Source: Candidatus Thorarchaeota archaeon
Lineage (GTDB): Archaea; Asgardarchaeota; Heimdallarchaeia; Hodarchaeales; Hodarchaeaceae
Direction of reading: 5' to 3'
DNA length: 32,000 bases
NCBI GenBank assembly: GCA_048882505.1
Contig: JBHLRO010000003.1
Location: 180,001 to 212,000, forward strand
Positions 1 to 25,294 of this stretch are shown one piece after another; positions within the stretch are counted from its first letter, which is position 1; every line of letters begins with the position of its first letter. The notes under the pieces are model-generated. The model saw only the letters and a program-made list of their open reading frames with translations, was not told the origin of the DNA and made no database searches. Position numbers and translations under genes: made by a program.

Positions 1-269
1 GAATGAATGATGGTTTAATTGTATTGAATGTAAGTAATCCCCTCAATCCTCTAGAGATAGGTCGTTACTATGAAGGAGGGAGGATTAATAGCGCGTATGT
101 AGTGAATGATTTGGTTTATGTTGCAGATCAAGACAATGGACTTATAATCTTAAATATGAAGTCCTCAACTGAAGCGAAATGGCCTTTCCAAACCACATTT
201 GTACCTGAGATAGCGGTTGTCTGTGTCATTCTCTTGATGGCTTTCACAAGAAAGCAAAAGACTGCTTAA
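1..269 (+). CDS. LVIVD-repeat (beta-propeller) surface protein, C-terminal part; runs off the left edge
   Basis: Repeat-like segments GLIVLNVSNPLNPLEIGRY and LVYVADQDNGLIILN match the LVIVD pattern. Ends in a hydrophobic helix (IAVVCVILLMAF) and basic tail (TRKQK). Confidence 0.8.
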   Translation, partial: MNDGLIVLNVSNPLNPLEIGRYYEGGRINSAYVVNDLVYVADQDNGLIILNMKSSTEAKWPFQTTFVPEIAVVCVILLMAFTRKQKTA

Positions 270-308: not shown

Positions 309-530
309 TTATAAATTATAATTTGCTCTTAATGCACCTAATCCTTCTTCAAAATGTTCTAGTTTGCATACTGGAAAAACTGGAAAACGAATACCATCCT
401 TCTCTGGTACCCAAGCCAAAGCGATCTGAAAATGGGTAGCCCCTGTTTCATTCACTATTTCACTAGTGTCCTCTGCTGTTTCCCAATTTTTCATAGTATT
501 CCTATCTGCCTGGAAAGGCTGCAGCTAGGG
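309..530 (-). pseudogene. Aldo-keto reductase C-terminal remnant
   Basis: KNWETAEDTSEIVNETGATHFQIALAWV...KLEHFEEGLGAL resembles the AKR C-terminus (gvTpAQiALAWl...leHleEnlgAl). An in-frame TAG lies about 12 codons upstream of the ATG at 494, and there is no room for the N-terminal barrel before the next gene. Confidence 0.55.
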
Positions 531-641
531 ACAAACATTGTCAATTGCCCTCGGACGAGATAGTAATCATCCCTTCCCCATATTCTCCCGACCTAATAGA
601 GGGGTAGAAGTTGGTATCCCGATAATATAAATACCATTTAC

Positions 642-2087
642 TTGGAGAAGATCAGTGTAGAGAATTGGTTCACTACCCTTTCTCTTTTCGATTTGATTCC
701 CTTGAAGAGAAATAAGCTTTTGGAAGTCATTCAACGGGCGGAAACTGGGCCCATTACATTAGAAAAGCACTTCGATCTCAAAGTCTTGAATGCTAAGGTC
801 AAGGAAGTCGTGAAAGAGTACGACATTCGATTTTCAGATGATCCCACAATAGTTATCCCTAGTGATAATAGCCTAGCGGACTCTTTGTTTCAAGCAGCGG
901 TAGATCTCTATTTAGAGACTGGTACATATTGTATGAGCAACCATCGACAGATAATATTTGAGGAAGCAGAGATTAGAGGAGCTTTCAGGAATGCGCCTGC
1001 GGAAATTACGTTTGGTGCAGGTTCCGACACGCGAAACATGAAAAATCGGAAAGTAGAGGATACTACACCCCCACTGTGCTTGACCTCGGGCGGAGGGGAA
1101 ATTTCGGAGGAAATATATGTTCAATTGATCCAAAGTTATGCGCAAGAGCCACTAGCAGACACGGTTAGTGGAGGGTTTCCGCTTCATAAAATCAGCGGGA
1201 TGGACCCAAAGCCAGGCACGCCTGCAGAGGTTTTAGCATCGATATATAATATCAAATATGCTAAAGAAGGTGCTAGGCTTGCCGGTCGTCCTTCCATTGG
1301 TTTTCATAACCTATTGGGCAGCGCCCTCTCCGCCTCGGGATATATTGCAGCCACTCAACCAGAATATGGAGTTCGACCAGTCGATGGAAACCTCATAGCA
1401 TCAATGGCTGAACTCAAGACGGACTTCGCCCAATTATCAAAGGCGCTATATTATACAGAACGAAACAATGTCCTCATAGGTGCAGTGTACGTGCCACTAA
1501 TGGGCGGATACGCGGGGGGACCTGAAGGAACGGCTGTGGTGACGCTAGCCCATCATTTTCAGGGACTTATGGTGCATAATGTAGCATATTCTGATTTTCC
1601 TGTATTGCATTTACAGCATTCTTGCAGTACCGCCCGAGAAACCCTGTGGATAGCTGGAATTGTAGGGCAGGCACTCAGTCGAAACACCCATCTTCTTTCC
1701 GCAACTGAAGCCATTACTGCTGCTGGTCCCTGTACGGAAATGTGCTTGTATGAAGTTGCTGCAAATGCAGTCATAGGGGCCGTTTCGGGGATTCACATTA
1801 ATAGTGCCAGCGCGGCCAAAAGTCAGTATTTAGATCGAGAATCAGGAATGGAAGCCCGAATTGGCTGTGAAGTCGGCCATGCTGCGACTGGAATGAAAAG
1901 GGATAGCGCCAATGAACTAGTTAACGCAATTCTAGCTAAATATGAACCTTCATTGGGAAAAGCTCCTCTGGGCAAAACTTTTCAGGAATGTTACGATTTG
2001 AAGACGTTACAACCTTCTAATGAGCATACTGGCATTTATAATCAGGTTAAAAAAGAATTACACGATCTGGGCCTTAATTTTTCTTGA
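642..2087 (+). CDS. mtmB: Monomethylamine methyltransferase MtmB-family protein, pyrrolysine-free (paralog 1)
   Basis: MtmB motifs RAETGP, AGRP, ELK, PLMGGYAGGPEGT, AGPCTEMCL, GMEAR and GKTFQECYD. The ORF is uninterrupted. His (CAT 1305-1307), or the following Asn, sits where MtmB has the amber/Pyl codon. The true start is probably TTG 693 or 702, by comparison with paralog 2. Confidence 0.9.
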   Translation: MEKISVENWFTTLSLFDLIPLKRNKLLEVIQRAETGPITLEKHFDLKVLNAKVKEVVKEYDIRFSDDPTIVIPSDNSLADSLFQAAVDLYLETGTYCMSNHRQIIFEEAEIRGAFRNAPAEITFGAGSDTRNMKNRKVEDTTPPLCLTSGGGEISEEIYVQLIQSYAQEPLADTVSGGFPLHKISGMDPKPGTPAEVLASIYNIKYAKEGARLAGRPSIGFHNLLGSALSASGYIAATQPEYGVRPVDGNLIASMAELKTDFAQLSKALYYTERNNVLIGAVYVPLMGGYAGGPEGTAVVTLAHHFQGLMVHNVAYSDFPVLHLQHSCSTARETLWIAGIVGQALSRNTHLLSATEAITAAGPCTEMCLYEVAANAVIGAVSGIHINSASAAKSQYLDRESGMEARIGCEVGHAATGMKRDSANELVNAILAKYEPSLGKAPLGKTFQECYDLKTLQPSNEHTGIYNQVKKELHDLGLNFS

Positions 2088-2313
2088 TTAGTTGACTCTG
2101 GTTTGGTAGAAGGTAAGTAAATTTAGGACCTAGGGCATTGTACAAAGGCTCCCCGATGACTTCGGAGTATCAATGCGTGTGAGGTATGTTCAATGCACCC
2201 AATCTGTATTTTGGTCAGATAGTAACTATAAACGGATAGATTTTAATATCTAGGATCTCTCCGTATTTAATAAAGTAAAAATATGACCGTCCTTCTAATT
2301 GGATGTAGATTCT

Positions 2314-2703
2314 ATGACAATTCTCTGGGACACACTGTCAGAAAAACAGCAGGAATGGCTATACACTCTCATTAGCTTTCTTATTGTACTTATCACTCTT
2401 GTACGGATCTTTACATCACCATCTGATTTTGCCTCGTTAGCATTAGTTTATTTATTTCTTGGTCTCTTCGTTGGATATTTCTTCTTTATCAAAGGGAGAT
2501 TCAAATTATTGGGACGTCCTTTGGTTCAGCGATGTTCTCGATGTCATACTCAGATGTTCGCGAAGTACAAGGGTACCTTCTATTGTTCAACACATTTAGA
2601 AGAAAAAATATCCCAGATCCAAGCCGAAAAAGGAAAATTAGGGAGAACGGAAAAAAGATTCTTGAAAAAAATCCAGTCCAGCAAACGAGAAGTGACCACC
2701 TGA
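2314..2703 (+). CDS. Small membrane protein with cytoplasmic C-x2-C-x13-C-x2-H zinc-finger-like motif
   Basis: Two hydrophobic segments, then CSRC (2533-2544) and CSTH (2584-2595) and a Lys-rich tail. ATG at 2314 preferred over TTG 2299. Confidence 0.7.
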   Translation: MTILWDTLSEKQQEWLYTLISFLIVLITLVRIFTSPSDFASLALVYLFLGLFVGYFFFIKGRFKLLGRPLVQRCSRCHTQMFAKYKGTFYCSTHLEEKISQIQAEKGKLGRTEKRFLKKIQSSKREVTT

Positions 2704-2790
2704 GCGATACGCTATTGAGGGGGTACGGTATGACACATAGCTTTTGTATTTATTCCAATTTCCCAATATTCGTAGTAAGAAGATTTAGAA

Positions 2791-4179
2791 TTAATAGATA
2801 AACGGAACCCCAATATCCTGAAGTCCTTTTTTGGTTTTACGATAGAGATCCGTATATTCCTGAGTAGGTTTAACCTTTCTCACATCATAACACTCTCTAA
2901 AGTGCTTCCCCTTGGGTGCCGTTGGGATTTTTTCTTCATAAAGATCAAGGAGAGCAAGAGTGAGCTCATTCGCATCGTTACGGGATATATTTTCCTTTGC
3001 TACCCCGCAGCCTACCTCTGCGGCAATTCGAGCTTCCAGGGGTGTTGCATAATTCTTGTATTTATTGAAAGCAACTCCAATTTCCCATAAATTCGCTCCA
3101 GATACAACTGATACTAGCCCGTGTGTTGCTGCCTCATGCAACACCATTTCTGTACAGGGACCTGCAGCTGTGAATCCTCCAGACATGGATATTAGATTGC
3201 TATTTCGAGCTAATGCTTGGTAAGAGGCAGAAATCACCCATAAGAGTTCTCGCATGGTATTACAAGTACTGTATTTCAAATGAAAAGGAAAATACACCAT
3301 AAAATGTGCCTGATTGACCATCAAACTCTGAATATGATATGCAATCCCAACAATGGCAGTTCCCTCTGGGCCGCCCGCGTAACCCCCCATAATAGGACCC
3401 GCCAGTGCGCAGATAAAACACCCATAAGTGTGAAAGTGTACCATTTTATTTAAGAGAGAATTATTCACCTTCAACTCGGTAACACTAGCAACAAATCGAC
3501 CGTCCGTTAACCGCTCTCCCCATTCAGGATTGCTCGCCGCAATTTGGGCAGCATCAGATTCCGCGGTTCCCACACTTTTCAAGAATATGCCTGGGCGGCC
3601 CGCACGTCGTGCGGCCTCTCGAAACATCATGGCATGAGCGACCGAGCCCTTAAGTTCAGAAGGATATCCCGATCGAATGGGCATTCCTTCAATCTCCTCG
3701 AGGATGGGGGCGCATACTCCATCAGCCAGTGGTTCTTGTACGTATGCCATTGACATTGGAACAAAGAGGTCTTCATCACAAGTAATATCCGGTGAGAAGA
3801 GGCAGTAAGGCCTTTGAGAATCCTCGATTTTCCTAGCTGTAATCTCTCTGGAGTCCCGTCCAAAACCAACGGTAAATTTTCCTGGGAAGTTTCCCAAAGC
3901 CTCATGGATTTCTTCCTCAGAAAATAGGATTCGACGGTAGGTATCAGTGCAAAGGGTTCCGACTTCTAAATAGAAGTCCCACGCGGCCTCCCAAAGTCGA
4001 TCCGCTAAGTGGTTATCGGCTGGGATAGGTTGGGTACGATCGAAGTTTATGTCGTAGTCTTGGATGACCCGGTGAAGGGCTGGTACCAAGAGTTTCAGGT
4101 CAAAATCCTTTTCCAAGCAAACAGGGCCAGTTTGGGCCCGATCTAGGATCTCGTTAATCCGCCACGGAGGGGTTACCAT
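2791..4179 (-). CDS. mtmB: Monomethylamine methyltransferase MtmB-family protein, pyrrolysine-free (paralog 2)
   Basis: Motifs DRAQTGP, CTDTYR, AGRPG, ELK, PIMGGYAGGPEGT, AGPCTEM, EAR and GKHFRECYDV. The ORF is uninterrupted, with Lys (AAA, 3577-3579) at the Pyl-equivalent position. Confidence 0.92.
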   Translation of the reverse strand: MVTPPWRINEILDRAQTGPVCLEKDFDLKLLVPALHRVIQDYDINFDRTQPIPADNHLADRLWEAAWDFYLEVGTLCTDTYRRILFSEEEIHEALGNFPGKFTVGFGRDSREITARKIEDSQRPYCLFSPDITCDEDLFVPMSMAYVQEPLADGVCAPILEEIEGMPIRSGYPSELKGSVAHAMMFREAARRAGRPGIFLKSVGTAESDAAQIAASNPEWGERLTDGRFVASVTELKVNNSLLNKMVHFHTYGCFICALAGPIMGGYAGGPEGTAIVGIAYHIQSLMVNQAHFMVYFPFHLKYSTCNTMRELLWVISASYQALARNSNLISMSGGFTAAGPCTEMVLHEAATHGLVSVVSGANLWEIGVAFNKYKNYATPLEARIAAEVGCGVAKENISRNDANELTLALLDLYEEKIPTAPKGKHFRECYDVRKVKPTQEYTDLYRKTKKGLQDIGVPFIY

Positions 4180-4395
4180 TGTTCTTACCTGGTCTCAGGT
4201 TTTTAATAACCAAATTGTCCACGTTTACCCGGGTGTACTCTTGGTTAACGCTCGCCATCTATAAAGATTCTGTTGATTCTTGGATAGATTTGGTAGGGTC
4301 AGCCTTTATAATATGGTTCAAGAAAAAAGATTTCGGAAAATCCAGGGCTACAGAAAATAGGATCCTCCTCTGGTTGGAATTGGCAGATAGATTAG

Positions 4396-4920
4396 GTGAA
4401 AATTAACATGACGATTATAGGCATTCTTTCGGACACTCACGATAATTTGATCGCGATCAAAAGAGCGGTAGAGGTGTTTAAAGCTCATGATGTCGAGATG
4501 GTGTTTCACGCGGGGGATTTCGTGGCACCTTTCGCTTTGCTTCCACTATTCGAATTTCCATGCCGATTAGTTTTGGGGAACAATGATGGTGAAATTCGTT
4601 TGCTTCGCAAACGAGTCAAAGAACATTCTGATAGCGTGTTGGAAGGTGTTTTGCTTATTGAAGAAATAAACGGCAAACGTATTGCATTGACCCACGGGCA
4701 TCACACGCAGGTTTTTACAACGATTCTGACTTCCGGCTCATTTGATGTCGTAATTAGTGGGCATACGCATCAACAAAAAGATGAAGTTCTCTCAAATCAA
4801 ACCCTTCATATCAATCCAGGTGAAGGTGGTGGATGGATTAGTGGAAGGGCATCGGTTGCGATCCTTGATTTGACCTCACTCGAAAGAAAGTTCATTAACA
4901 CCTGGCAATATAACATTTAA
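4396..4920 (+). CDS. Metallophosphoesterase, MJ0936/YfcE family
   Basis: Calcineurin-like motifs SDTH, HAGD, GNND, THGH, GHTH and NPG in the expected order. Confidence 0.92.
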   Translation: MKINMTIIGILSDTHDNLIAIKRAVEVFKAHDVEMVFHAGDFVAPFALLPLFEFPCRLVLGNNDGEIRLLRKRVKEHSDSVLEGVLLIEEINGKRIALTHGHHTQVFTTILTSGSFDVVISGHTHQQKDEVLSNQTLHINPGEGGGWISGRASVAILDLTSLERKFINTWQYNI

Positions 4921-4948
4921 GGTCTTTCTGGCTTCCTTTAGTCTTCCT

Positions 4949-5263
4949 TTAGTCTTCTATTGCCGCGATTTTATCTTCCATCTGTCGGGGTTTATCTCGG
5001 CGATCATCGATTCGAAGGTGAGTGACCACTCGATCCGCGCCTGCATCAATGATGGCCTCGTGGGCCGACCTTGTCACAGAAAGGACTTGATCTAAGGAAT
5101 CTGCCTCAATCACGGTCCCCATCGGATGGTGAATAACACGAATGTCAGGAAATCCATCGATTTGTTTCACGGCTTGCTTGACATACTTACTGAGGCTGGT
5201 TCCTACCCCAACCGGAAAGGTGCTTAGTTCAGCAATGATTTTGGATTTCAAACTATCAGCCAC
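4949..5263 (-). CDS. MTH1187/thiamine-binding protein family (UPF0045)
   Basis: ELSTFPVGVGTSLSKYV, HPMGTVIEAD and RIDDRRDK...MEDK match the family pattern; 104 aa. Confidence 0.88.
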   Translation of the reverse strand: MADSLKSKIIAELSTFPVGVGTSLSKYVKQAVKQIDGFPDIRVIHHPMGTVIEADSLDQVLSVTRSAHEAIIDAGADRVVTHLRIDDRRDKPRQMEDKIAAIED

Positions 5264-5347
5264 CTATTTTTTGTCATTATGTTCATTCATTGGCGATTTC
5301 TTCCTAGCTAATTGCATCTTCTTGATTAATGTTTTTTCTAACTCCTA

Positions 5348-6718
5348 TCAAATCCCTTCAGATGATGGTATGCTCCGTCTTTTCCTTCGGATGGCGAATA
5401 CAAGAAAACAAATCCCTACCAATGGTGCCAACCAAGATAGGTTGGTTGATCGGGCAGCCCCCACATGTAATATAATCGTGGAGGAACTTTGATCCCCATC
5501 TTGGTCCCGAACTACTGCTGTGAAGTTATAAACTCCTGCTGTATCTAATGTGATTTGATGCTGGATTAGCTCTTTTTCCCACGGTGACTCCGCGATATTC
5601 GACCCATTTTGGTAGATTTGATACGACATCGGGTTCGAAGAAACCGCCCGCCAGCGTAACGAAACGGCCGTATTAACTAATACTGTTGTATTCCGCATGT
5701 CCGATACAATAACGGGAATCGGAACGTTTGGGAATTCGGAGTCATTTATGGGGGATGTGTCAAGAAACACTTCTGCCCAATCAGAAAAAGAATCTTGGTC
5801 TGTATCTTCCGATATAATATCTGTCCCCTGGATATACTCATCAAAATTTCGCAGACCATCATCATCCTTGTCCTCATGTGAATCATTTTCGTTCGGATTA
5901 AGTTCATAACGATGCTCATAGTAATTGGGCATGTTATCTCCATCTGCATCATTCAAATCAAACCGATAACGCGTAGCATTAATTCGTCCGAAATTGACTT
6001 CATCACATGGGAGATTGTTCTTATTCCACCCATTATTATGCATCTTGATTAGATCAGAATAATTCATGAAGGAAAGGGATTGATTTCCATACCATGAATC
6101 GTCTACAACACCCTCTGGTCCGTGAGCCGCTCCAAATAGATGGCCTACCTCGTGAAGAAGTATTAATTGTCGGGATGTCCAATCTAGAGGTTGATAGTGT
6201 GCAATGATGAGGGCATTTCCGTAAACTGCATTGACCCGATTGTGCCCGCCCAGATAGTACTCTTGATAGATGATTAGCCAATCATAACCGTTGCCATTGA
6301 CTCGCGGATCTGTAATACCTGATGAATCCTGCCACGAAATTTGACTTGTTACCTTTTCGAGACTTACATCCAATGAGTCATTTTCGCCGGGATCATATGT
6401 TGTGATACCTTTGACCTGCAAGGAAACGCCGAACTTTGTCTCAAATGGTTTTAACCAATCCTCAAATTGTGTTATAACGGCACCTTCATCAGGGAAATAT
6501 TTTCCTTCTCCGAGCAGGTTAATATCTAATGCTACAAGGATCGTACTAGTGCCATCTGGCTCATACCGATTGTATTCGGTTATAATAGGAACTTCGTTAC
6601 CTGTATATAGTGTTCTTGTTGGTATCGCAGATATTATTGCCCCGTTGAGCATCAGATAACTAACTACTAGCAGAATGGAAGGTATTAGTACCTTATGTAA
6701 GCTGCTTCCTCTTTTCAT
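5348..6718 (-). CDS. Membrane-anchored zinc metalloprotease (metzincin) with DxDxDG calcium-binding repeats and Ig-like domain
   Basis: N-terminal hydrophobic signal; HEVGHLFGAAH (6122-6154) with Met-turn SFMNY; three DxDxD repeats (about 5780-5950); beta-rich domain with YNFTAVVRD; C-terminal helix plus RRKRR. Start ATG 6718 preferred over 6745. Confidence 0.85.
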   Translation of the reverse strand: MKRGSSLHKVLIPSILLVVSYLMLNGAIISAIPTRTLYTGNEVPIITEYNRYEPDGTSTILVALDINLLGEGKYFPDEGAVITQFEDWLKPFETKFGVSLQVKGITTYDPGENDSLDVSLEKVTSQISWQDSSGITDPRVNGNGYDWLIIYQEYYLGGHNRVNAVYGNALIIAHYQPLDWTSRQLILLHEVGHLFGAAHGPEGVVDDSWYGNQSLSFMNYSDLIKMHNNGWNKNNLPCDEVNFGRINATRYRFDLNDADGDNMPNYYEHRYELNPNENDSHEDKDDDGLRNFDEYIQGTDIISEDTDQDSFSDWAEVFLDTSPINDSEFPNVPIPVIVSDMRNTTVLVNTAVSLRWRAVSSNPMSYQIYQNGSNIAESPWEKELIQHQITLDTAGVYNFTAVVRDQDGDQSSSTIILHVGAARSTNLSWLAPLVGICFLVFAIRRKRRSIPSSEGI

Positions 6719-6853
6719 GACAACCACGGTCACGGGGACGATCAACTATCTTCATTGGAGTATTCAAAATCATCGACGGAGAGGAATCCAAAAATTTTTC
6801 TTAGCTAACGTCATATCGTCGAGAATTCTCTCAGACTGGCCCATATGATAGAG

Positions 6854-6860
6854 TTTATAA
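6854..6860 (+). promoter_or_regulatory. TATA box of the ABC exporter operon
   Basis: TTTATAA 67 nt upstream of the GTG at 6927, immediately before the tandem operator. Confidence 0.65.
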
Positions 6861-6864
6861 GCAA

Positions 6865-6905
6865 ATGTTAGAAATACATAACATGATGTTAGAAATATTC
6901 AACAT
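6865..6905. promoter_or_regulatory. Tandem palindromic operator, 2 x ATGTTA-N8-(T/C)AACAT
   Basis: 6865-6884 ATGTTAGAAATACATAACAT and 6886-6905 ATGTTAGAAATATTCAACAT. The first 12 nt are identical, each unit is an inverted repeat, and the period is 21 bp. Confidence 0.75.
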
Positions 6906-6926
6906 TTCTCATCGGGGTTCCATCTA

Positions 6927-7664
6927 GTGATAGAGGTTAAGAATCTTTCAAAAGAGTTTAATGGATTCACTGCGATTAGGAATATTAGTTTTCGCATAAA
7001 TGAAGGAGAAATTTTTGCATATCTTGGTCCCAACGGTGCGGGAAAGACCACCACTATAAATATCGTGGCTACGCTGCTTTTGCCATCATCAGGTACGGCA
7101 AAAGTTGCTGGATATGATGTAACAAAAGAGGGATTGAAGGTCAGACGGTTAATCGGGTATTCTCCTGATGATTTTGGACTTTATCCAACCTTAACGATTT
7201 TTGGAAATCTCGATTTCAGCGGTGCTCTATATGGGATCAGGAAGAACGCGAGAAGAAAGAAAATCAAGAAATTACTTGAGTTTTTCACGTTAGAAGATAA
7301 GAAAAATACCCCTATATCAGCACTGTCAAAAGGGATGAAGCAGAAAGTAAATTTGGCAAGAGCATTAATCCATAATCCTAGGATATTGTTACTTGACGAA
7401 CCTACATCAGGTCTTGATCCAGTCATGGCAAAAGAAGTCATGTCACTGATATCCGGGTTGAAAAAAGAAGGTAAAACCATACTTATGACAACCCATCTTT
7501 TATCTAGGGCAGAAAAAGTATGTGATACGGTAGCTGTCATCAATGAGGGGAAAATACTAGACGTAGGAAACTTAATTGACGTTAAGACGAGATTAAAACA
7601 ATCTACGCTAGAAGACGTTTACTTTTCCCTATTAGGTGAGGACGCTGAATTCCGCGGTAACTGA
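6927..7664 (+). CDS. ABC-2 type exporter ATP-binding protein
   Basis: Walker A GPNGAGKT, signature LSKGMKQK, Walker B LLLDEPT, H-loop TTH. Confidence 0.95.
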   Translation: MIEVKNLSKEFNGFTAIRNISFRINEGEIFAYLGPNGAGKTTTINIVATLLLPSSGTAKVAGYDVTKEGLKVRRLIGYSPDDFGLYPTLTIFGNLDFSGALYGIRKNARRKKIKKLLEFFTLEDKKNTPISALSKGMKQKVNLARALIHNPRILLLDEPTSGLDPVMAKEVMSLISGLKKEGKTILMTTHLLSRAEKVCDTVAVINEGKILDVGNLIDVKTRLKQSTLEDVYFSLLGEDAEFRGN

Positions 7665-8331
7665 AATTTGTTATAAGGAACTGAAGGTACGTTTTGGATC
7701 CATGAAAGTTCTTCTGCCAATGTTAATTTCGTTGGGAATACCAGTGGTGGCTTTTATGCCGCAATTAATCGCGTTTATGTCACAAACCGACTCGGAAGCT
7801 GAATATTTCATTCTGTTATTTTTCTTGATGCTTCCCGTGATGGGAACTACTCTAGTAGGAATCACCACGTTTATCAATGAGATCAGGTGGAAAACCATTA
7901 AACCTCTCCTAGCGGCTCCAGTCTCCGAAGGAATAATCCTTCTAGGGAAGAGTTTGGCGTGCATCATTGCCGGTGTAATGATAGACGGAATCCTGTCCTT
8001 AATAATCCTTTTTTCTGGACTACCATTTCATTTATCACGGGTTTTGCTGTTATTCGTTGTGGGACCCCTTTCTGTGGTTTTTACAACGTTCCTCTTTATA
8101 CTCGGAACTTCCAAACTTCCTTCAATTGTGGAAAGCGGAGGCGTAGTTTTATTGCCCATGGGCGGATTGTTAATCATTTTTGGTATGTTTTTCCTTCTAA
8201 AAGGAGTTTTTCAGTTCGATACCGTTATCGCATATTTGTTATTGAGCGTTGGACTTCTCATGGCCATATTCGTGACATTCTTTCTTGCTCAAAGATTATT
8301 TGACCGAGAAACCTTGGTCCTTGCAGTATAG
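7636..8331 (+). CDS. ABC-2 type exporter permease
   Basis: About six hydrophobic segments and an EIRWKTIKPLLAAPVS motif (E..T...LL..P). Overlaps the ATPase stop. Confidence 0.88.
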   Translation: MRTLNSAVTEICYKELKVRFGSMKVLLPMLISLGIPVVAFMPQLIAFMSQTDSEAEYFILLFFLMLPVMGTTLVGITTFINEIRWKTIKPLLAAPVSEGIILLGKSLACIIAGVMIDGILSLIILFSGLPFHLSRVLLLFVVGPLSVVFTTFLFILGTSKLPSIVESGGVVLLPMGGLLIIFGMFFLLKGVFQFDTVIAYLLLSVGLLMAIFVTFFLAQRLFDRETLVLAV

Positions 8332-8343
8332 GGTGGTATTGTT

Positions 8344-8757
8344 ATGTCTCTCAGGAATCCAAGACTTTTCCTCATACTGATTCCCCCGTTGTTGGGATCG
8401 ATTATAGCCTTGATGGGTATATTTGGTTTTTTCTCAAGCAAAAATACTCTTGATCAGCTGTTAAGCGGTTTTTTGATTTTTCCCGGGATTTTAATCTTGA
8501 TATATTCCTATCGAGATTTTAAATACCGAAGAAAGGGAGTTACCACGATCAGACACGATGAACGGTCCGAAATAAACAGATTAAAGTCTGCTGATGCAGC
8601 TTTCAGATTTTTTTTTGTTACACTGGCATTCCTGATATTAATTAACAGCATAGGGATTATTGATGAGGTGATTTTTGTTGCTTTGACTGGACCGATTGTT
8701 GCGGGTGGTATTATCATATACTACATTGGATTTTATTGGGCGGAGAGACGGGGTTGA
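8344..8757 (+). CDS. DUF2178-like membrane protein
   Basis: Hydrophobic segments around a [11 protein letters not shown] motif, in the usual position directly before an XRE HTH gene. Confidence 0.7.
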
Positions 8758-8768
8758 GGGTACCTCAA

Positions 8769-8966
8769 ATGAAAACACGGATAAAAGAATATAGAGCTCG
8801 TTACAATCTTACACAAAAGCAGCTCGCGGAGCAAGTAGGTGTGAGAAGAGAAACTATCGTTTTCCTGGAAAAAGGAACCTATAATCCATCTTTAAGACTA
8901 GCTTACAATATCGCGCGGGTTCTTAACGCATCGATTGAGGAATTGTTCGTCTTCGAAGAAGAATAA
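8769..8966 (+). CDS. XRE-family helix-turn-helix transcriptional regulator
   Basis: [51 protein letters not shown]...IEELF. ATG 8769 gives the canonical length of 65 aa. Confidence 0.93.
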
Positions 8967-9046
8967 GGAAGGTCACGTGTTATTTCTCTTGTATTCTTGG
9001 TTAGAAACGATCTATATTTCAACACGAATTGTTTTACGCCTACTCT

Positions 9047-10762
9047 TCAGTATAAAACCATTTTCTTTGAATAAGATCGAATAAAACCGAGTGAAAAAAC
9101 CAAAACTGCCACAATTACAAAAAGCCAACCAATTTGTTCCCATTGGAAATTCAAAAACAGTATACCTATCAGGTCAAAATAAGTAAAGAGTGATAGAAAC
9201 CTTAGGGGCATCAAAGATTCTCCAAAATAAGGGATGACCGCGAAGAGAATCGTCCAAGCTCCCACACCAATAACAATTCGAATTCTATATTCTGGACGTA
9301 CTATAATAGCGATAGCCATGGCCAAGCAAAAGAGCGTGATGTATAATAAGGGAATAAGGATAAAAGCAACCATTTGGTCAAATAACCGCGAATCTTTTTG
9401 AATTACGATTTGGCCAAAGAGCAGAGTTATCATGGCCAAAAAGCTGAGAAGAAGGATCTCGATTACACCTGTGAAAATTCGAAGCAATAGCACTTTTCTG
9501 GTTGTCACAGGGGTTCCATAAAGGAGATCTTGCATTCCTGCTGAATAATCTCTGTCGATGACTTTCGCAGCTAAGATAATACTGAATGGGGCAAAATAAA
9601 TCCATGTATAGCCGTAAAACTGACCCAGAAATACACCCAAAGGATCTTGGGCGACATCATACCCGCGTAGGATAGATGCTACGATTGGATTGTTCGTATA
9701 AATTGGCATCAGCTGTTCAAGCCCTTGTTCTGGGTAGGCAAAAATAATCGAAGACACCATCAATACAAGGAAAATAGAATAGCCAATAAAAAGAAAATAA
9801 TCGCTTTGGAATTGTTCGGCCGCAATCGGCGAAACTCGGTTTAAGAACCTTTGAATCGGAGAAAGCAGTTTCCCTGGTCGAACTATGGATAGCATTCCTC
9901 TAAGTGACTTTCTGCGGGGACTGATGCTACTTGACCTCGTTTGAACGGCCAATAGATCTCTTCTTCTAAAAATAATAAGTCCAGTAGCCAAAAACAAGAC
10001 TGCGAGCACAAATGGCAGTATGTTCTCGATATTAACTGGGTCTCCTTTCAATAACGTCCCATTCAATCTGAAATAATAGAGAATATTTGCATATTTTAGA
10101 TCCTCTAAAGCGGGGTTAAAACCCAACGCAAAAACTATCAGATATGAGTAGATAAATAGCAATCCACCAAATCCACGAGCCAGGTCGCCTCTTAGAGTAA
10201 TTAAACTAACCGAAAAGGTTAGAAAATAGAATGTAAGCGTTGATAACCAAAGAATGAAAAAGGCTATTGCTACTCGTTCGAATGGAATAGGCAAATTGAA
10301 AAAAAGGAATACGGTTGGGATCTGTAGAAACATTAGGGTTAGGATGGACGTGATGAGTATTATATGAGAAAAAATGTGTCTAATCGTGACATTGATTTTT
10401 CGATTGGACGTGGATAAGTAAATATCCGCCATACCAGATCGAACCTCGTCGGGTAATCCCGCTCCCCCAAGCCATAATCCTACAATTGGAAAGAGGTTCG
10501 TAGCATACAGTAAAAAGTAGACTAGAATAAAAAACAGGTAAACCTCTGGGTTTTCCCCTCCCACTTCAACTAGAAATTCACCTATGATCGCCTCTCCAAA
10601 CGGTGAGTCAGTCAGGCCGTAGAAGGCTAATACCCCCTCCTCGCCTGGGTATGCAGTTACACTAAGGGTAACACCGAATAATCCGATGAAGAATAAGAAT
10701 ATGTAAAGAAACCGATTTTGGCGCCAGATGATCCGAAGGCTCTCGATCCACATCCGAATCAA
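9047..10762 (-). CDS. ABC-2 exporter permease with two fused, duplicated transmembrane domains
   Basis: 571 aa with two homologous halves (AYP...GMADIYLST and AYP...GMQDLLYGTP), each with several TM segments. Lies directly after the ATPase. Confidence 0.85.
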   Translation of the reverse strand: MIRMWIESLRIIWRQNRFLYIFLFFIGLFGVTLSVTAYPGEEGVLAFYGLTDSPFGEAIIGEFLVEVGGENPEVYLFFILVYFLLYATNLFPIVGLWLGGAGLPDEVRSGMADIYLSTSNRKINVTIRHIFSHIILITSILTLMFLQIPTVFLFFNLPIPFERVAIAFFILWLSTLTFYFLTFSVSLITLRGDLARGFGGLLFIYSYLIVFALGFNPALEDLKYANILYYFRLNGTLLKGDPVNIENILPFVLAVLFLATGLIIFRRRDLLAVQTRSSSISPRRKSLRGMLSIVRPGKLLSPIQRFLNRVSPIAAEQFQSDYFLFIGYSIFLVLMVSSIIFAYPEQGLEQLMPIYTNNPIVASILRGYDVAQDPLGVFLGQFYGYTWIYFAPFSIILAAKVIDRDYSAGMQDLLYGTPVTTRKVLLLRIFTGVIEILLLSFLAMITLLFGQIVIQKDSRLFDQMVAFILIPLLYITLFCLAMAIAIIVRPEYRIRIVIGVGAWTILFAVIPYFGESLMPLRFLSLFTYFDLIGILFLNFQWEQIGWLFVIVAVLVFSLGFIRSYSKKMVLY

Positions 10763-10764
10763 GA

Positions 10765-11703
10765 CTAACCCTCCTTTGGTTCCTCATAGTATTGCATGAA
10801 ATAATCTTCCAGACTAGGGGCGGGAATCGTTACCTCTCCTAAAGGTAGATTCAGGTCTTGGAGAACCCGAAAAATCGCAGAAAAATCCGGATTTGGCTTA
10901 TCAAACCATAATTCATACTTGCGACCATCACTGTTGGATGCAGGTTTGAAGGTGCTCACATAAGGAATTTTTGCCAGATCCTCGGGGCGACCGATTTCGC
11001 CCAACGACACAATCATCTTTCGTGGGATTTTCTCGCTCAACTGCTCGATTAGGTCATGACTCACTAATTTCCCCTCCTTAATGATGGCTACTTCATCACA
11101 GATCTTTTGGACTTCGTCAAGATTATGGGAGGAAAAGAAAATTGTCTTTCCGCGGGATTTAAACTCCGTTAATACCTTATACAATCGTGTTTGCATCAGA
11201 GGATCAAGGCCCGCTGTGGGTTCATCCAAAATAACGAGATCTGGATCATGCATTAGCGCCTGTACTAATCCCACCTTCTGTCTGTTTCCTTTGCTTAGCT
11301 GATGGACCCGTCTAGTTTCATCAAGGTCAAATCTTGTAACCAATTCAGCTCGAAGAGAAATTGGTTTTTTCCTCAGCGCTGCAAAGTAATCCAGCATTTC
11401 CTTAACGGAAAAGTGCCGATACAGATCAAAGTCGCCAGGCAGATATCCGATTTTTTCTTTCAAAAGATAGTTGGAATCCCAGTTAGCAATCTCCTGATCA
11501 AAGATCCTGACATTTCCTCTAGATTTGTTGATGATCCCAAGTAAACACCTTATGGTTGTAGTTTTTCCCGCACCATTAGGACCTAAGAATCCAAATATCC
11601 TTCCTTTTTTAATGGTTAGGGTTAAATCTTCTATTCCCCGAATTTTACCGTAATATTTCGTCAAATCTCGAAGTTCCACCACATTCCCATCTGTTTCAGT
11701 CAT
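10765..11703 (-). CDS. ABC-2 type exporter ATP-binding protein
   Basis: GPNGAGKT, LSKGNRQK, LVILDEPT and SSH motifs, plus a C-terminal extension ending PSLEDYF. Confidence 0.95.
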   Translation of the reverse strand: MTETDGNVVELRDLTKYYGKIRGIEDLTLTIKKGRIFGFLGPNGAGKTTTIRCLLGIINKSRGNVRIFDQEIANWDSNYLLKEKIGYLPGDFDLYRHFSVKEMLDYFAALRKKPISLRAELVTRFDLDETRRVHQLSKGNRQKVGLVQALMHDPDLVILDEPTAGLDPLMQTRLYKVLTEFKSRGKTIFFSSHNLDEVQKICDEVAIIKEGKLVSHDLIEQLSEKIPRKMIVSLGEIGRPEDLAKIPYVSTFKPASNSDGRKYELWFDKPNPDFSAIFRVLQDLNLPLGEVTIPAPSLEDYFMQYYEEPKEG

Positions 11704-12282: not shown

Positions 12283-13674
12283 TTATTTGGTAGCTGTAGT
12301 TATGCGACAATCTCTCACACGGACGGTCGGGATCCATGTGGGTACGAAAACCTGCCACCACTCGACCTGAACTCTATCATTACCCATGGCATCGATATTG
12401 GCAAAATGGCTTAGGATGTTATCACTGATACGGAAGTTCTTTACTGGAGTCCTGAGTTCGCCGTTTTCAACAAGAAAAGCGGCATCTCGTGGGATGGTAC
12501 TGTACTCTGTGGAGATACGGCTCGTATAGCGGGTGTACCAGTTGCAGGTTACATAAAGGGTTGGCCTGGATCCATTCTCTAATAATTCATCAAAGTTATG
12601 GTCACCATTATTGAAAACCGTATTAGATGGGGAAGGAGCTAATGCCTTGGCTCTTCCCGCTAATGGGACTAAATCGCTATTTCCAGTTGATTCTGTTTGA
12701 AACAATTCAGCAGTGGATGTATTATGAATAAAATTTACGAGAACGCCATCCGAAAAAATCGGGGTGTTCTGACGGGGGTACCCCTCTAGGTCGAAAGGTG
12801 CAGTCCCTAGGCCATCGGGCTGTAATCCATTATCATAGACCGACACAAATTCAGGGCCAAGCTTGTCACCCATTTTATCCTCCAATGGGCTCATTCCCAT
12901 CATAACCGCAAAGGGGCTTGCTCCCCGAGGGATAACTGCGAGAATGTTTGCCGCTACCGCAGGTGACATAATTATGTCGTATTTGCCAGGGGCGGCTTGG
13001 ATTGCACCCTGATGCATTTTAGAAAATCGTCCCGCTCGCTCACCTGCAACTAGGAGGTCATTTTCAGCTTTAGACGGTATACACCCGCAGGCCAATCCTT
13101 GTCCAGAGGCATCCAATTCTTCCTGAAATGCTCTAATAGTCATATTGAAGAAAGTATCGTTATAAGTGCCCCGTGGTCCAGCCGAACTGGCAAAGGACAG
13201 AGTTTTTTTTCCAAAAAAATACGAGCCTGCGACTCTTTTAGCGCCAGCTTCTAGGGCTCGATCGATACAGTTATTCACATCCTCTGGTGCCTTATCCCTA
13301 TATTCGTCAATCCTAGGATCTTTTTGCTGCGGAATGGGCGAATACATCTCCGATGTGTCTGTTATCCCCTTAAAAAACGGACTAAAGGGCATATGTTTTG
13401 CAAACTTGGCCATTGATATCAGTTGGTTCTTGACCATGTCTTTGGAGGAAGGTGTAAACTCTCCAATTGTCACTCGGTCTCCGTCAACGACCATTAAAAC
13501 ATGTAGTGTCTTTGAACTCCATTGTTTATTGATGTCGATCTTGTTTTGGGAAAATCGAATTTGGTTCTTCGTTTCCGCTATACCTCGGACAATCAATGCA
13601 TCTATATCCATCCCTTGTCCTAGCTCTTGGCTGTAATCCACAAAGGATTGTAAGGATTCACTCATAGGTTTCAC
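12283..13674 (-). CDS. tldE: TldE/PmbA-family protein (non-catalytic partner)
   Basis: PGKYDIIMSP, PFDLEG, DGVL..FIH, ENGEL..PVKNFRI. No HExxGH motif. Follows tldD by 3 nt. Confidence 0.85.
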   Translation of the reverse strand: MKPMSESLQSFVDYSQELGQGMDIDALIVRGIAETKNQIRFSQNKIDINKQWSSKTLHVLMVVDGDRVTIGEFTPSSKDMVKNQLISMAKFAKHMPFSPFFKGITDTSEMYSPIPQQKDPRIDEYRDKAPEDVNNCIDRALEAGAKRVAGSYFFGKKTLSFASSAGPRGTYNDTFFNMTIRAFQEELDASGQGLACGCIPSKAENDLLVAGERAGRFSKMHQGAIQAAPGKYDIIMSPAVAANILAVIPRGASPFAVMMGMSPLEDKMGDKLGPEFVSVYDNGLQPDGLGTAPFDLEGYPRQNTPIFSDGVLVNFIHNTSTAELFQTESTGNSDLVPLAGRAKALAPSPSNTVFNNGDHNFDELLENGSRPTLYVTCNWYTRYTSRISTEYSTIPRDAAFLVENGELRTPVKNFRISDNILSHFANIDAMGNDRVQVEWWQVFVPTWIPTVRVRDCRITTATK

Positions 13675-13677
13675 CAG

Positions 13678-15093
13678 TCATCCAAGACGTATGTTTCGCA
13701 TCCTAATACTTCCTCCACCGGCATAGACGGGTACACCTTGACTGGGATCGCTCTTTCCGCAAGTACCGGGAAAGTCAAATGCAAGATCCTTTCCCACCGC
13801 ATCTATTGAAGAGAACAGGCCGATGCTAGTCAATTCCATCGTCGGTCTTCGAACCATAGTATCGGTAATCTCTCCATCTTGTATCAAATAACATTCGAAT
13901 CCAACGTATTTACTTTGATATCGGCGATCATCAATGTTCCACTCTGTGAATGATAGCATGTAAATGCCGTGTTTTACGTCCTCAACGAGTTCTTCAAACG
14001 TGTAATCACCAGGTTTCATATAGGTGTTTGCCATTCTAATGATAGGCTCACGATTGAAATCCACAGACCGAGCGGCACCATTGGAACCCATTCCGAATTT
14101 CGTTCCATATTCTCGGTTCAGTAACGGCTCGTTTATTATACCCTCTTTAATCAGAATTCTTTCCCGAGTTTTTACTCCTTCATCATCGTACAAATAAAAC
14201 CCGCCCGTTCCAGGAATGGTTGGATCCTCAGCAATGGTGACATGCTCTGTACCAACCCGAGACTCCCCTAAGGTTAAGTCTCGCCAAAATGATTCACCTG
14301 CTTGGGCTCCTTCGCGTCCCATTATGCGATCACCCTCACTTGGATGTCCACAATTCTCATGACAAATGATCCCCACGACTTCGGGGCCCACCACAAAGTC
14401 GACAACATCCTTTAATGTATTATCTGATTGTTCTGCCACCTTTTTGATCTTCTTACATTCGGTTTCAAACTCATCGATCCACGTTTTGGTTCCTTCCCAA
14501 CCAGTTGAACGTGTAAGATCCAAAAATCTTTGCTCAGAGTCGAGAAGACCTTTGATTGTCAACAATCCACGATATTTAAGCATAGACAAATCCGCATCGA
14601 TTTGAGTCCCCTCAGAAGTAACCAAATACTTGGTATATGTTTGCGCCTCATATATAGCCACTCTAGTGTTGATTCCTATTGTTTCAGCTCGCTTATCCAT
14701 TTCTTGGAGAAGGCTTACCATCACCTCGGTATCCTGATCAGCTAAATTCTGTTTCACTGGCACGCCCCATGACCCCTGGTTCGAAATCGGGGCTCCAAGC
14801 TCTATCTTTTCTTCAGGATTTGATGCCCTCGCTAGTTTGACTCCCGCCTGAATAGCTTCTTTTACAGCCTTTCGTGTCAAATCGTCTACTGAAACAAACC
14901 CAAGTCCACCATTTTTGAGAACACGGAACCCAATTCCTTGCCAGGAAGGCATTTCCGCACCAGACATCACGTTTCCATTACGCAAGACCAAATTTACATT
15001 TTTCCCTTTAATTAAACGAGCCTCTGCGTATTCTGCGCCCTGTTCTTGAGCGAATTCAACCCCAAAGTCGGCCAAACCTTTTGCAAATGACAT
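13678..15093 (-). CDS. tldD: TldD-family metalloprotease
   Basis: HENCGH (HExxGH), DDEGV, RMANTYM.PG and the C-terminal Cys ligand in GTCGK. Confidence 0.92.
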   Translation of the reverse strand: MSFAKGLADFGVEFAQEQGAEYAEARLIKGKNVNLVLRNGNVMSGAEMPSWQGIGFRVLKNGGLGFVSVDDLTRKAVKEAIQAGVKLARASNPEEKIELGAPISNQGSWGVPVKQNLADQDTEVMVSLLQEMDKRAETIGINTRVAIYEAQTYTKYLVTSEGTQIDADLSMLKYRGLLTIKGLLDSEQRFLDLTRSTGWEGTKTWIDEFETECKKIKKVAEQSDNTLKDVVDFVVGPEVVGIICHENCGHPSEGDRIMGREGAQAGESFWRDLTLGESRVGTEHVTIAEDPTIPGTGGFYLYDDEGVKTRERILIKEGIINEPLLNREYGTKFGMGSNGAARSVDFNREPIIRMANTYMKPGDYTFEELVEDVKHGIYMLSFTEWNIDDRRYQSKYVGFECYLIQDGEITDTMVRRPTMELTSIGLFSSIDAVGKDLAFDFPGTCGKSDPSQGVPVYAGGGSIRMRNIRLG

Positions 15094-16754: not shown

Positions 16755-17087
16755 TCATTCTGATGGATTTTCCCTTCCCGTCGCAAGCGCTGCAATCAGC
16801 TTACAGATCTCAAGTATCATTGGATCTGTTAATGAATAGTAAACTTCATTTTTTTTTCTTTGGCAATCAACAATTCCTTTCTCCCTCAATACGCGTAGGT
16901 GTTGGGAAATATACGGTTGGGGACGTTCTGTCTCGATTTCAATTTGACTAACGTTTTTTGGGCCATTTTCCAAAACATGGATTAGTTTAAGGCGAAAGGG
17001 ATGTGTTAGCGATTGACATAATCTTGCTGTAAGCTCTAACGCTCTTTCATCCTCAGTGGAAAATTTAGAATCTAATTTAGAGCTCAT
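16755..17087 (-). CDS. ArsR/SmtB-family transcriptional regulator with three Cys
   Basis: SLTHPFRLKLIHVL, VSQI, ISQHLRVLREKGIV, VYYSL. Start ATG 17087 (MSSKL) preferred; the longer ORF would run through the divergent promoter. Confidence 0.9.
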   Translation of the reverse strand: MSSKLDSKFSTEDERALELTARLCQSLTHPFRLKLIHVLENGPKNVSQIEIETERPQPYISQHLRVLREKGIVDCQRKKNEVYYSLTDPMILEICKLIAALATGRENPSE

Positions 17088-17114
17088 ATTACTCTCATTG
17101 AGAATATGCCATAG

Positions 17115-17163
17115 ACCATATATAAGCCCTATGGTAATATTCAAGAAAAGCAATATTTATAAA
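17115..17163. promoter_or_regulatory. Divergent ArsR/PDO promoter: ACCATA-N9-TATGGT inverted repeat around a TATA-like TATATAA, plus palindromic TTTATAAA
   Basis: ACCATA at 17115-17120, TATGGT at 17130-17135, TTTATAAA at 17156-17163. Confidence 0.45.
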
Positions 17164-17204
17164 TTTTGAATTAAAGGTATATTTAGATCTTCTAGGTGCA
17201 TAAA

Positions 17205-17867
17205 ATGGCAACCGAAGTAAAAATACGAATTGAAGATAAAATTTTGAACGAAGTCCGCCAGATGTTTGAAGACATCGGTCACGACGTTACGCTTCATATG
17301 TTTACCTCAAAGGAGCATTGTCTATTATGCAACGAGACTCTCGCATTGGCAGAGCAGGTCGCAGAACAGTCAGACAAGATCACTTTGAATCACTGTGAAT
17401 GTGAAAATCTGGAATCGGAGCTTGCGAAAAAGTGGAAAATTGCTCGGCACCCTGCAATTGCCATTGAAGGGCTTTCCAAAGGCCTAATACACTTCTATGG
17501 AATTCCGAGCGGGTATGAGTTTGGATCGCTAATCGAGTCGCTTATCTTGGCGGGTAAGGATGGACACCTTGATCTAGATCCTCAGATAGTTGAAGAACTA
17601 GAAAAAATCGATCAACCAGTACATATCCAAGTGTTCGTGACCCCTACTTGTCCATATTGTCCACGTGCTGTTCTAGCAGCCATTAAATTTGCAATGGTGA
17701 ATGAAAACATAACTGCAGACTGCATAGAGGCTACTGAGTTCATAGACCTATCAAACCAGTATGGTGTCCACGGAGTACCAAAAACCATCATCAATGATGT
17801 AGTAGAGGTCATAGGTGCTGTTCCAGAACAGGCACTTCTAGCGAAAGTCAAAGAGGCCCTCAGATAA
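17205..17867 (+). CDS. Protein disulfide oxidoreductase (PDO, archaeal glutaredoxin-like, two thioredoxin folds)
   Basis: CLLC and CPYC active sites, FYGIPSGYEFGSL, FVTPTCPYCP and VHGVPKT. Confidence 0.93.
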   Translation: MATEVKIRIEDKILNEVRQMFEDIGHDVTLHMFTSKEHCLLCNETLALAEQVAEQSDKITLNHCECENLESELAKKWKIARHPAIAIEGLSKGLIHFYGIPSGYEFGSLIESLILAGKDGHLDLDPQIVEELEKIDQPVHIQVFVTPTCPYCPRAVLAAIKFAMVNENITADCIEATEFIDLSNQYGVHGVPKTIINDVVEVIGAVPEQALLAKVKEALR

Positions 17868-17887
17868 CTGGGGACTAAACAATCTCC

Positions 17888-17896
17888 TTTTTTTTT
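17888..17896 (+). terminator. Oligo-T archaeal terminator candidate after PDO
   Basis: T9 run 21 nt after the PDO stop codon. Confidence 0.45.
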
Positions 17897-17922
17897 CCAT
17901 ATGAATTTGGGCCGAGAATATA

Positions 17923-25098: not shown

Positions 25099-25294
25099 TA
25101 CTATACAACCAGGCCTGACTTCTACTATAAGGCTGTTTTTCGATTGGATCGTAAGACTGTAATAAATTACGTAATAAATAAATAATCTCCTGGCTCCGCC
25201 GCTGTTGTAAACAAGTTTGGCCGTGGGCGAACAGTTTACCTTCTCGAATTCATGATATCCAAATTTTATCAAATCAAACCTGGAAGCGGTTTTA

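Follow-up and report, generated by a model that had tools for sequence, protein, structure and literature searches.

A pair of genes belonging to the MtmB family of corrinoid methyltransferases is found in the genome of a Candidatus Thorarchaeota archaeon of the Hodarchaeales (GenBank assembly GCA_048882505.1; 4.32 Mb in 83 contigs, 94.5% complete), within a 32,000-nucleotide stretch of contig JBHLRO010000003.1 (positions 180,001 to 212,000, or G000:C3:180001-212000) that is referred to here as the window. Paralog 1, the 'His type', runs from 702 to 2087 on the forward strand and encodes 461 amino acids, and paralog 2, the 'Lys type', runs from 2791 to 4179 on the reverse strand and encodes 462; the two are 43% identical, converge on one small open reading frame (ORF; 2299-2703, forward strand), and make up exactly the whole complement of MtmB-family genes in the genome. 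Neither frame contains an internal stop, and the ORFs, together with their matches to Pfam family PF05369, confirm the first-pass annotation, which had described two full-length, amber-free MtmB ORFs facing each other across one small gene. The frame of copy 1 is open from a TTG codon at 642, which would give 481 amino acids, and the start is more probably the TTG at 702, because a TATA-like box at about 623-634 ends only 8 nucleotides (nt) upstream of the first TTG, and because the database form of the protein (P0004) has 461 residues.

Against a curated cut-off of 25 bits, copy 1 matches PF05369 (MtmB) with 372.4 bits (E 4.2e-111) over profile positions 4-450, and copy 2 with 331.0 bits (E 1.5e-98) over positions 3-449; MtmB1 of Methanosarcina barkeri (1tv2, 1l2q, 1nth) is matched at E 2.6e-78 and 7e-71, respectively. 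AlphaFold models of both proteins were built on orthologue alignments. Compared with the methanogen structures, as the first-pass annotation had suggested, the model of copy 1 (predicted local distance difference test score, pLDDT, 90.7) superimposes on 1l2q and 1nth with template modelling (TM) scores of 0.92 and 0.93 (E 5.6e-43), and that of copy 2 (pLDDT 91.2) has its secondary-structure elements in the same order. Orthologues of each copy, 68-94% identical, occur over many Asgard metagenome-assembled genomes (MAGs), those of copy 2 being 76-94% identical among MAGs named Hodarchaeales, and the nearest homologues come from MAGs that their source records name Candidatus Hodarchaeales, Hodarchaeota or Heimdallarchaeota. 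Motifs held in common with pyrrolysine (Pyl)-containing MtmB are kept in both copies, namely R-P ahead of the Pyl strand, AGPCT-M and the GGY-GG-E-T-A loop, and this retention of scaffold motifs, along with the identity among orthologues, indicates that both copies are under selection.

It is the active site that sets the two proteins apart from methanogen MtmB. At the column of Pyl202 (M. barkeri numbering), HMMER alignments and a check of the codons place His in copy 1 (CAT, 1305..1307, forward strand) and Lys in copy 2 (AAA, 3577..3579, reverse strand), whereas TAG stands exactly at this column in all 26 Pyl-type genes taken for comparison. The same alignments put Gly in both copies at the column of Glu205, Asn-Leu (copy 1) or Arg-Phe (copy 2) at His228-Glu229, and Ala-Val or Ala-Leu, in the same order, at Asp258-Glu259, bearing out the earlier claim that the acidic residues near Pyl are replaced in both paralogs. 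Glu205, Glu229 and Asp258/Glu259 are presumably pocket-lining residues, and in the model of copy 1 the replaced columns sit on successive barrel strands (200-203, 229-235 and 258-263). With pocket residues assigned from these strand positions and the alignment, the pocket has shifted from acidic to neutral or basic, copy 1 having His-Asn and Asn-Leu there and copy 2 having Lys together with Arg-Phe.

These replacements of acidic residues are conserved inside each clade of the family tree described below. His at the Pyl column is invariant, both in a 40-sequence alignment (A1, H202) and in all 64 leaves of the copy 1 clade, and Lys is found in 59 of 59 leaves of the Asgard subclade that includes copy 2. 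Because the sister subclades have Gln, Ala or Val at this column, the Lys is, on the sequence comparison, a clade-specific pocket residue rather than a general catalytic group. A relic or mimic of Pyl was also considered, and is rejected as a general catalytic feature both by these other residues, which occur in sister clades that have the same operon, and by the position of the Lys clade, nested far from the Pyl clade. Read-through at a Pyl codon is rejected too, since neither frame is interrupted by a stop and a search for the Pyl genes found none above cut-off. The genome-wide search for pyl genes that the first-pass annotation had called for found best matches in the host of 21 bits for PylD (TIGR03911, cut-off 150) and 28 bits for PylS (TIGR02367, cut-off 178), and ARAGORN found no tRNA with a CUA anticodon, with or without an intron search. 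The same program reports only 20 tRNA genes when introns are not searched for and 39 when they are, some of the latter (several) having dubious, very long 'introns', which suggests that the tRNA genes of the host are intron-rich or hard to detect.

Position of the pair in the MtmB family

A phylogeny of 291 sequences was built with FastTree (LG+gamma). Pyl-type genes were gathered by a DNA-pattern scan around the Pyl codon, which returns many chance matches besides Pyl-mtmB loci, and then by following a Methanohalophilus locus into Methanosarcinaceae genomes. On the question of Pyl versus non-Pyl affinity, which had earlier been left to such a tree, both copies fall inside an all-non-Pyl superclade of 253 leaves with support of 0.989; on the opposite side of the split are the 26 MtmBs that contain TAG, together with every one of the 11 non-Pyl homologues of two methanogen genomes. 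Inside the superclade, the clade of copy 1 (64 leaves) is sister to the clade that includes copy 2 (125 leaves), with support of 1.0. One of the methanogen non-Pyl homologues, L079, is encoded directly downstream of a corrinoid gene and fits the published description of mtqB. Both copies are 32-35% identical to Pyl-MtmB, compared with 24-31% to the methanogen non-Pyl homologues, and, judged by sequence with L079 standing in for the published MtqB, neither appears to be MtqB-like.

Homologues of MtmB that lack Pyl have been described before. Activity on tetramethylammonium and choline has been shown for a non-Pyl MtmB, the MtqB of Methanococcoides methylutens Q3c (Kashyap et al. 2026, PMC13044021), and a pocket signature of Met, Cys and aromatic residues is reported to be conserved in its clade. 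According to the same study, which includes a tree of 1,061 sequences, non-Pyl MtmBs are spread across Asgard archaea and the function of most is unknown (PMC13044021). MtmB has also been mentioned in Sifarchaeia, where Pyl is carried by MtbB only (Sun et al. 2021, PMC9723677). The Hodarchaeales pair is a new member of a kind that is already recognised and widespread, and the newness assumed in the first-pass annotation is lessened by these published homologues, Asgard ones included; a literature search found no paper on the Hodarchaeales pair itself. Among 400 genomes searched across the phylum, the MtmB family was found in 51, with an in-frame TAG in none of the matches.

One locus bears on what the non-Pyl part of the family does. 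At L095 (G319:C1:1567600-1575000), an operon at 444-5140 encodes a corrinoid protein, a non-Pyl MtmB homologue, MtrH and a RACo-type activase, and the completeness of this operon indicates a function as corrinoid-dependent methyltransferase 1 (MT1) for this part of the family. The MtmB homologue there has Met at the Pyl column and belongs to a related Asgard clade, from another family. Its activase has a 2Fe-2S domain, and an aldehyde:ferredoxin oxidoreductase gene adjoins the operon.

Probable corrinoid carrier and activase genes elsewhere in the genome

When all larger ORFs of the window were scanned against Pfam, none proved to be a B12-binding, RACo/RamA, URO-D (MtbA/MtaA) or Pyl gene, in keeping with the first-pass report that the window lacks a corrinoid protein, RamA, MtbA and pyl genes. 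The accompanying statement that the pair has no corrinoid partner holds within the window and fails genome-wide, for genes for a RamA-type activase and for two corrinoid proteins of the MtxC type are present in the host, and a cognate is identifiable on contig C1. A genome without corrinoid partners, which had been named as a finding that would tell against methyl transfer, is not what was observed.

The first of the two corrinoid proteins (218 amino acids) is encoded in an operon at G000:C1:325678-328743 (L011:7678-10743) with a protein of 307 amino acids carrying a homocysteine S-methyltransferase domain (PF02574), the sole protein of this kind in the host, and with a non-Pyl MttB of 509 amino acids. 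In its gene content the operon resembles a 'split MetH' with an MttB-type enzyme in place of the pterin-binding module, and this suggests that methionine is made from a quaternary amine. The second, an 'orphan' of 223 amino acids at G000:C1:441914-442585, has unrelated flanking genes; it has the domains PF02607 and PF02310 and the DxHxxG, SxL and GG motifs of cobalamin binding.

Synteny and phyletic pattern identify the orphan as the corrinoid gene that goes with MtmB. On three unrelated contigs, a protein 56-69% identical to copy 2 is encoded 4-8 nt downstream of a corrinoid-protein gene. The orphan shares 45-49% identity with these MtmB-linked carriers; the figure for the carrier linked to MttB in the host is 36-38%. 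In a survey of 22 congeneric genomes, 16 MtmB-positive and 6 MtmB-negative, orthologues of the orphan were found in 14 of the former and in none of the latter. In 11 congeners (G057, G060, G061, G067, G069, G071, G072, G073, G074, G075 and G076) the orthologue, 65-92% identical, lies directly beside an MtmB homologue, and in G070 it lies 1.7 kb from the MtmB pair. A carrier 67% identical to the orphan adjoins a copy-1-type gene in G307.

At least 10 of the 16 MtmB-positive congeners have the two MtmB types as neighbouring genes. The arrangement is convergent in G000, G065, G066, G067, G070, G071, G072 and G074, whereas in G060 and G073 the two MtmB genes diverge, with the carrier gene lying between them; G067, G071 and G074 have in addition a third, carrier-linked copy of the copy 2 type. 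The genes between the pair vary, with a 346-amino-acid protein in one genome and an Ogt gene with an Ada-like regulator in another. In the latter case (L015:11535-12603, CP070695) an Ogt-type gene (PF01035) for a methylated-DNA methyltransferase and an Ada_Zn_binding/HTH_18 regulator stand between convergent MtmB genes, and the link with repair of methyl damage may be due to chance. The copy-1-type gene of G070 (G070:C65:17667-18769) matches the MtmB profile in two pieces, 4-261 and 378-450, and, on the pattern of this match, may be broken or mis-assembled. As for the small ORF between the two genes of the window, its 134-amino-acid product has a hydrophobic N-terminal part and a Cys-rich motif and matches no Pfam family above cut-off. 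It was considered as a component of the system and ruled out, since only the closest congener, G070, keeps it (at the same position, with 64% identity) and unrelated genes take its place elsewhere; from this distribution it is probably lineage-specific and outside the MtmB system.

A physical interaction between copy 2 and the orphan was also predicted. The predicted complex scores 0.66, compared with 0.00 for the best control; the mark applied is reached by 58 of 80 solved complexes and by 2 of 110 mismatched pairs. At least 79% of contacts recur between runs, and the pLDDT of the partner is at least 84. In the predicted interface, barrel-top loops of copy 2 (263-270, 301-305 and 167-171), which rank among the most conserved parts of the protein, face the GDxH side of the carrier (106-112). 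The prediction used alignments made in this analysis, and a like complex, MttB-MttC (7xcn), has already been solved, so that passing the mark shows likeness rather than proof. Taking synteny, phyletic pattern and predicted complex together, the orphan is the probable cognate carrier of the MtmB genes.

A RamA/RACo-type activase of 594 amino acids, with the RACo linker, middle and C-terminal domains, is encoded at G000:C4:208705-210486. Its gene is not adjacent to the pair, and it is tied to MtmB by genome content and by phyletic pattern, orthologues being present in 15 of 16 MtmB-positive and 2 of 6 MtmB-negative congeners.

Donor, methyl sink and alternative explanations

The best explanation of these observations, to which we give a probability of roughly 0.7, is that both genes encode functional, Pyl-independent, corrinoid-dependent MT1 enzymes of the MtmB fold; the figure covers the whole explanation, that is, MT1 activity, a donor other than monomethylamine, the orphan carrier and the activase. 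Each paralog would demethylate a small compound and pass the methyl group to Co(I) of the orphan carrier, which the activase would keep reduced, and the paralogs would probably serve different substrates or successive demethylation steps with one common carrier. Monomethylamine is very unlikely to be the donor for either copy, judging from the genes themselves, because there is no TAG codon, PylS and PylD have no match above cut-off, no tRNA-CUA was found, and the acidic pocket is gone. The first-pass annotation had proposed methyltransferases for different, unknown methylated substrates; a donor other than monomethylamine stands as the best reading, with relatives in corrinoid operons, and the class of substrate is what we infer from pocket and gene neighbourhoods.

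The likeliest donor would be an N-methylated compound of zwitterionic or anionic character, for example a betaine or an N-methyl amino acid, a class to which the pocket and the neighbourhoods weakly point. Elsewhere, members of the family are found beside Liv-type ATP-binding cassette (ABC) importers (L113, L114 and L115), and have Dpp/Opp ATPases (L092), peptidases (L015 and L115) or an aminotransferase (L113) as neighbours. At L112 (JGI 3300031604 contig, 866-10798), genes for two MtmB homologues with a corrinoid-protein gene between them adjoin a complete set of histidine-utilisation genes (aromatic-lyase family, urocanase, amidohydrolase and FTCD), and methylated histidines, hercynine for instance, are candidate substrates of that clade. 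An AIRS/AIRS_C (PurM-superfamily) gene stands immediately upstream of the corrinoid protein and MtmB in two lineages (L016:6226-7257 and L021:1171-2343).

Where the methyl group would go is constrained by what the host encodes. McrA was not found in its genome, nor, in an assembly that is 94.5% complete, were MtrH and CdhC. Entry of the methyl group into the Wood-Ljungdahl pathway was considered and rejected, as neither MtrH nor CdhC was found in the organism's own genome, and the earlier idea that the pair might feed methyl-group catabolism is weakened, no obvious route being left. Two candidates for a methyltransferase 2 (MT2) were considered and not assigned. One, a URO-D protein (G000:C21:54274-55275), has orthologues in MtmB-negative congeners as well; the other, a Pterin_bind protein (G000:C18) considered as an MT2 of the methyl-tetrahydrofolate type, has an F420-0:gamma-glutamyl-ligase-like gene as neighbour and, from that setting, looks like an enzyme of pterin biosynthesis. 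Methionine synthesis is a possible sink, because the PF02574 protein of the separate corrinoid/MttB operon is the only recognisable enzyme in the host that would use methylcorrinoid. A fuller scheme, in which the His- and Lys-type paralogs of Hodarchaeales share one carrier and demethylate imported N-methyl amino acids or betaines, with the methyl group passing to homocysteine, methionine and S-adenosylmethionine rather than to one-carbon catabolism, is speculative and offered as a tentative possibility. If true, it would amount to a corrinoid-dependent route of methyl scavenging, with two so far unassigned substrate specificities, in a host that shows genes neither of the Wood-Ljungdahl pathway nor of methanogenesis.

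Several points weigh against assigning the pair to corrinoid-dependent methyl transfer from such a donor. No corrinoid, MT2 or activase gene lies beside either MtmB gene in the host genome, and the convergent orientation of the two genes means that they are not co-transcribed. No MT2 or acceptor can be assigned, with MtrH and CdhC not found, the Pterin_bind protein apparently biosynthetic and the URO-D protein phyletically unlinked. The 22 surveyed genomes are kin, hence non-independent, and several are incomplete, so that the distribution of the carrier is to be read as a pattern rather than a statistic. Docking of the carrier was modelled for copy 2, and the substrate class is drawn from a handful of neighbourhoods belonging to other clades of the family.

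One alternative is that the paralogs are subunits of a single obligate hetero-oligomer, for instance a mixed D3 hexamer, neither of which works alone. The frequent proximity of the two types in the congeners would fit such a complex, and MtmB of M. barkeri is a D3 homohexamer (PMC9842639), so that an oligomer interface exists in the family. Yet each type is also found alone beside a corrinoid gene in other genomes, and a heteromer is therefore not required: Bathyarchaeia-like and bacterial contigs have the copy 2 type as a single gene accompanied by a corrinoid gene, an extra carrier-linked gene of this type is present in G067, G071 and G074, and in G307 the copy 1 type and its carrier are 65 kb from the copy 2 type. 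The intervening genes differ among genomes and the pair lies on opposite strands. An obligate heteromer is, on these gene arrangements, not supported and appears unlikely.

It is also conceivable that both copies are functional orthologues of MtqB, demethylating tetramethylammonium, choline or both. MtqB is a non-Pyl MtmB homologue of shown activity whose authors note the Asgard non-Pyl MtmBs (PMC13044021), and a quaternary amine would fit the pockets, whose character is hydrophobic and not acidic. The tree argues otherwise, with both copies apart from all 11 methanogen non-Pyl homologues, the MtqB-like L079 among them, as does an identity to those homologues that is lower than to Pyl-MtmB; Lys and Arg in the pocket of copy 2 would moreover be unfavourable to a permanent cation. 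We regard orthology with MtqB as quite improbable.

The same low standing is given to the proposal that the proteins are repurposed barrels with a role outside corrinoid-dependent methyl transfer, whether as another enzyme or as non-catalytic proteins. The isolation of the pair from corrinoid, MT2 and activase genes in the host, and the failure to find a complete downstream methyl route, would be expected of such proteins, and are set against a carrier gene that tracks MtmB in the genus and adjoins it in most congeners, the strong conservation of the loops predicted to dock the carrier, and full corrinoid operons in related clades.

Least probable of all, and scarcely tenable, is that both copies still demethylate monomethylamine or similar small amines with His or Lys partly replacing Pyl: these residues stand exactly at the Pyl column and are conserved in their clades, and the National Center for Biotechnology Information (NCBI) annotates all of these proteins as 'monomethylamine:corrinoid methyltransferase', but Lys and His lack the amine-binding electrophilic imine of the Pyl enzymes (PMC9842639), the acidic residues next to Pyl in the sequence are gone, docking gave a non-Pyl MtmB almost no affinity for monomethylamine (PMC13044021), and close sister clades with a corrinoid operon have Gln, Ala, Val or Met at the column, a variation which means that the residue there is no conserved catalytic group.

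The remaining ORFs of the 32 kb, as classified by Pfam, encode peptidases, ABC and major facilitator superfamily (MFS) transporters, thioredoxin-like proteins, a DNA methylase, a pirin, a glutamate dehydrogenase and a PAS kinase. They include a PmbA/TldD peptidase pair (12283-15093, reverse strand), an ArsR-type regulator with two thioredoxin-like proteins (16755-18522), a DUF1156 DNA methylase (18570-20708, forward strand) and a protein of 1,080 amino acids with a PPDK_N (ATP-binding) domain and a weakly receiver-like N-terminal part (22063-25305, reverse strand). A gene for an LVIVD-repeat protein lies close to the MtmB genes at 3-269 (forward strand), and another is found beside the carrier-linked third copy in G067 (L108:66-2150, reverse strand).

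Homologues of MtmB without Pyl are numerous, and a substrate is known for MtqB only. Both clades represented by the pair are conserved among Asgard archaea of the Heimdall group, where annotation routinely and wrongly calls them 'monomethylamine:corrinoid methyltransferase', and because of this, metabolic reconstructions of archaea related to eukaryotes may wrongly infer the use of methylamine; the Hodarchaeales are close relatives of the eukaryotic lineage. What this analysis contributes is a probable carrier protein and activase, evidence that neither clade is MtqB-like, and a recurring link of family members with amino-acid importers and amino-acid catabolism. It reveals no new kind of system, and its use lies in the discovery of substrates and in more cautious annotation.

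Comparison with known methyltransferases

One of the closest known counterparts is MtmB1 of M. barkeri (1L2Q, 1NTH, 1TV2), which the two proteins resemble in matching the same Pfam family over its full length, in the triosephosphate isomerase (TIM) barrel on which the copy 1 model is superimposed, and in the GGY-GG-E-T-A loop, AGPCT-M and the C-terminal ECYD region common to both copies. MtmB1 also works with a RamA-type activase and a small corrinoid protein that has the DxHxxG motif, as the pair probably does. Unlike MtmB1, to which they are 32-35% identical, the copies have His or Lys in place of the UAG-encoded Pyl and have lost the acidic residues, and they are found in a non-methanogen (no McrA found) without Pyl machinery, in which the gene for the carrier is not adjacent.

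In the MttB superfamily, Pyl-free members use other methylated amines together with a corrinoid protein, an MT2 and an activase. They include the quaternary-amine methyltransferases MtgB for glycine betaine, MtpB for proline betaine, MtcB for carnitine and MtyB for gamma-butyrobetaine (PMC11291895). The logic of a Pyl family with Pyl-free members is the same, and the host itself has one such MttB in its corrinoid operon. The families are nonetheless distinct (PF06253 versus PF05369), the model of copy 1 reaching a TM score of about 0.5 and 10-14% identity to MttB and MtgB.

MtqB, with its corrinoid protein MtqC, shares with the pair the absence of Pyl from an MtmB homologue, and methylates its cognate corrinoid protein from a donor other than monomethylamine. 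The sampled methanogen non-Pyl homologues differ in being 24-31% identical to the two copies and lying across a split supported at 0.989, and the methanogen passes the methyl group on to coenzyme M, a step with no counterpart in the present host. MtqB nevertheless shows that the MtmB fold can work without Pyl.

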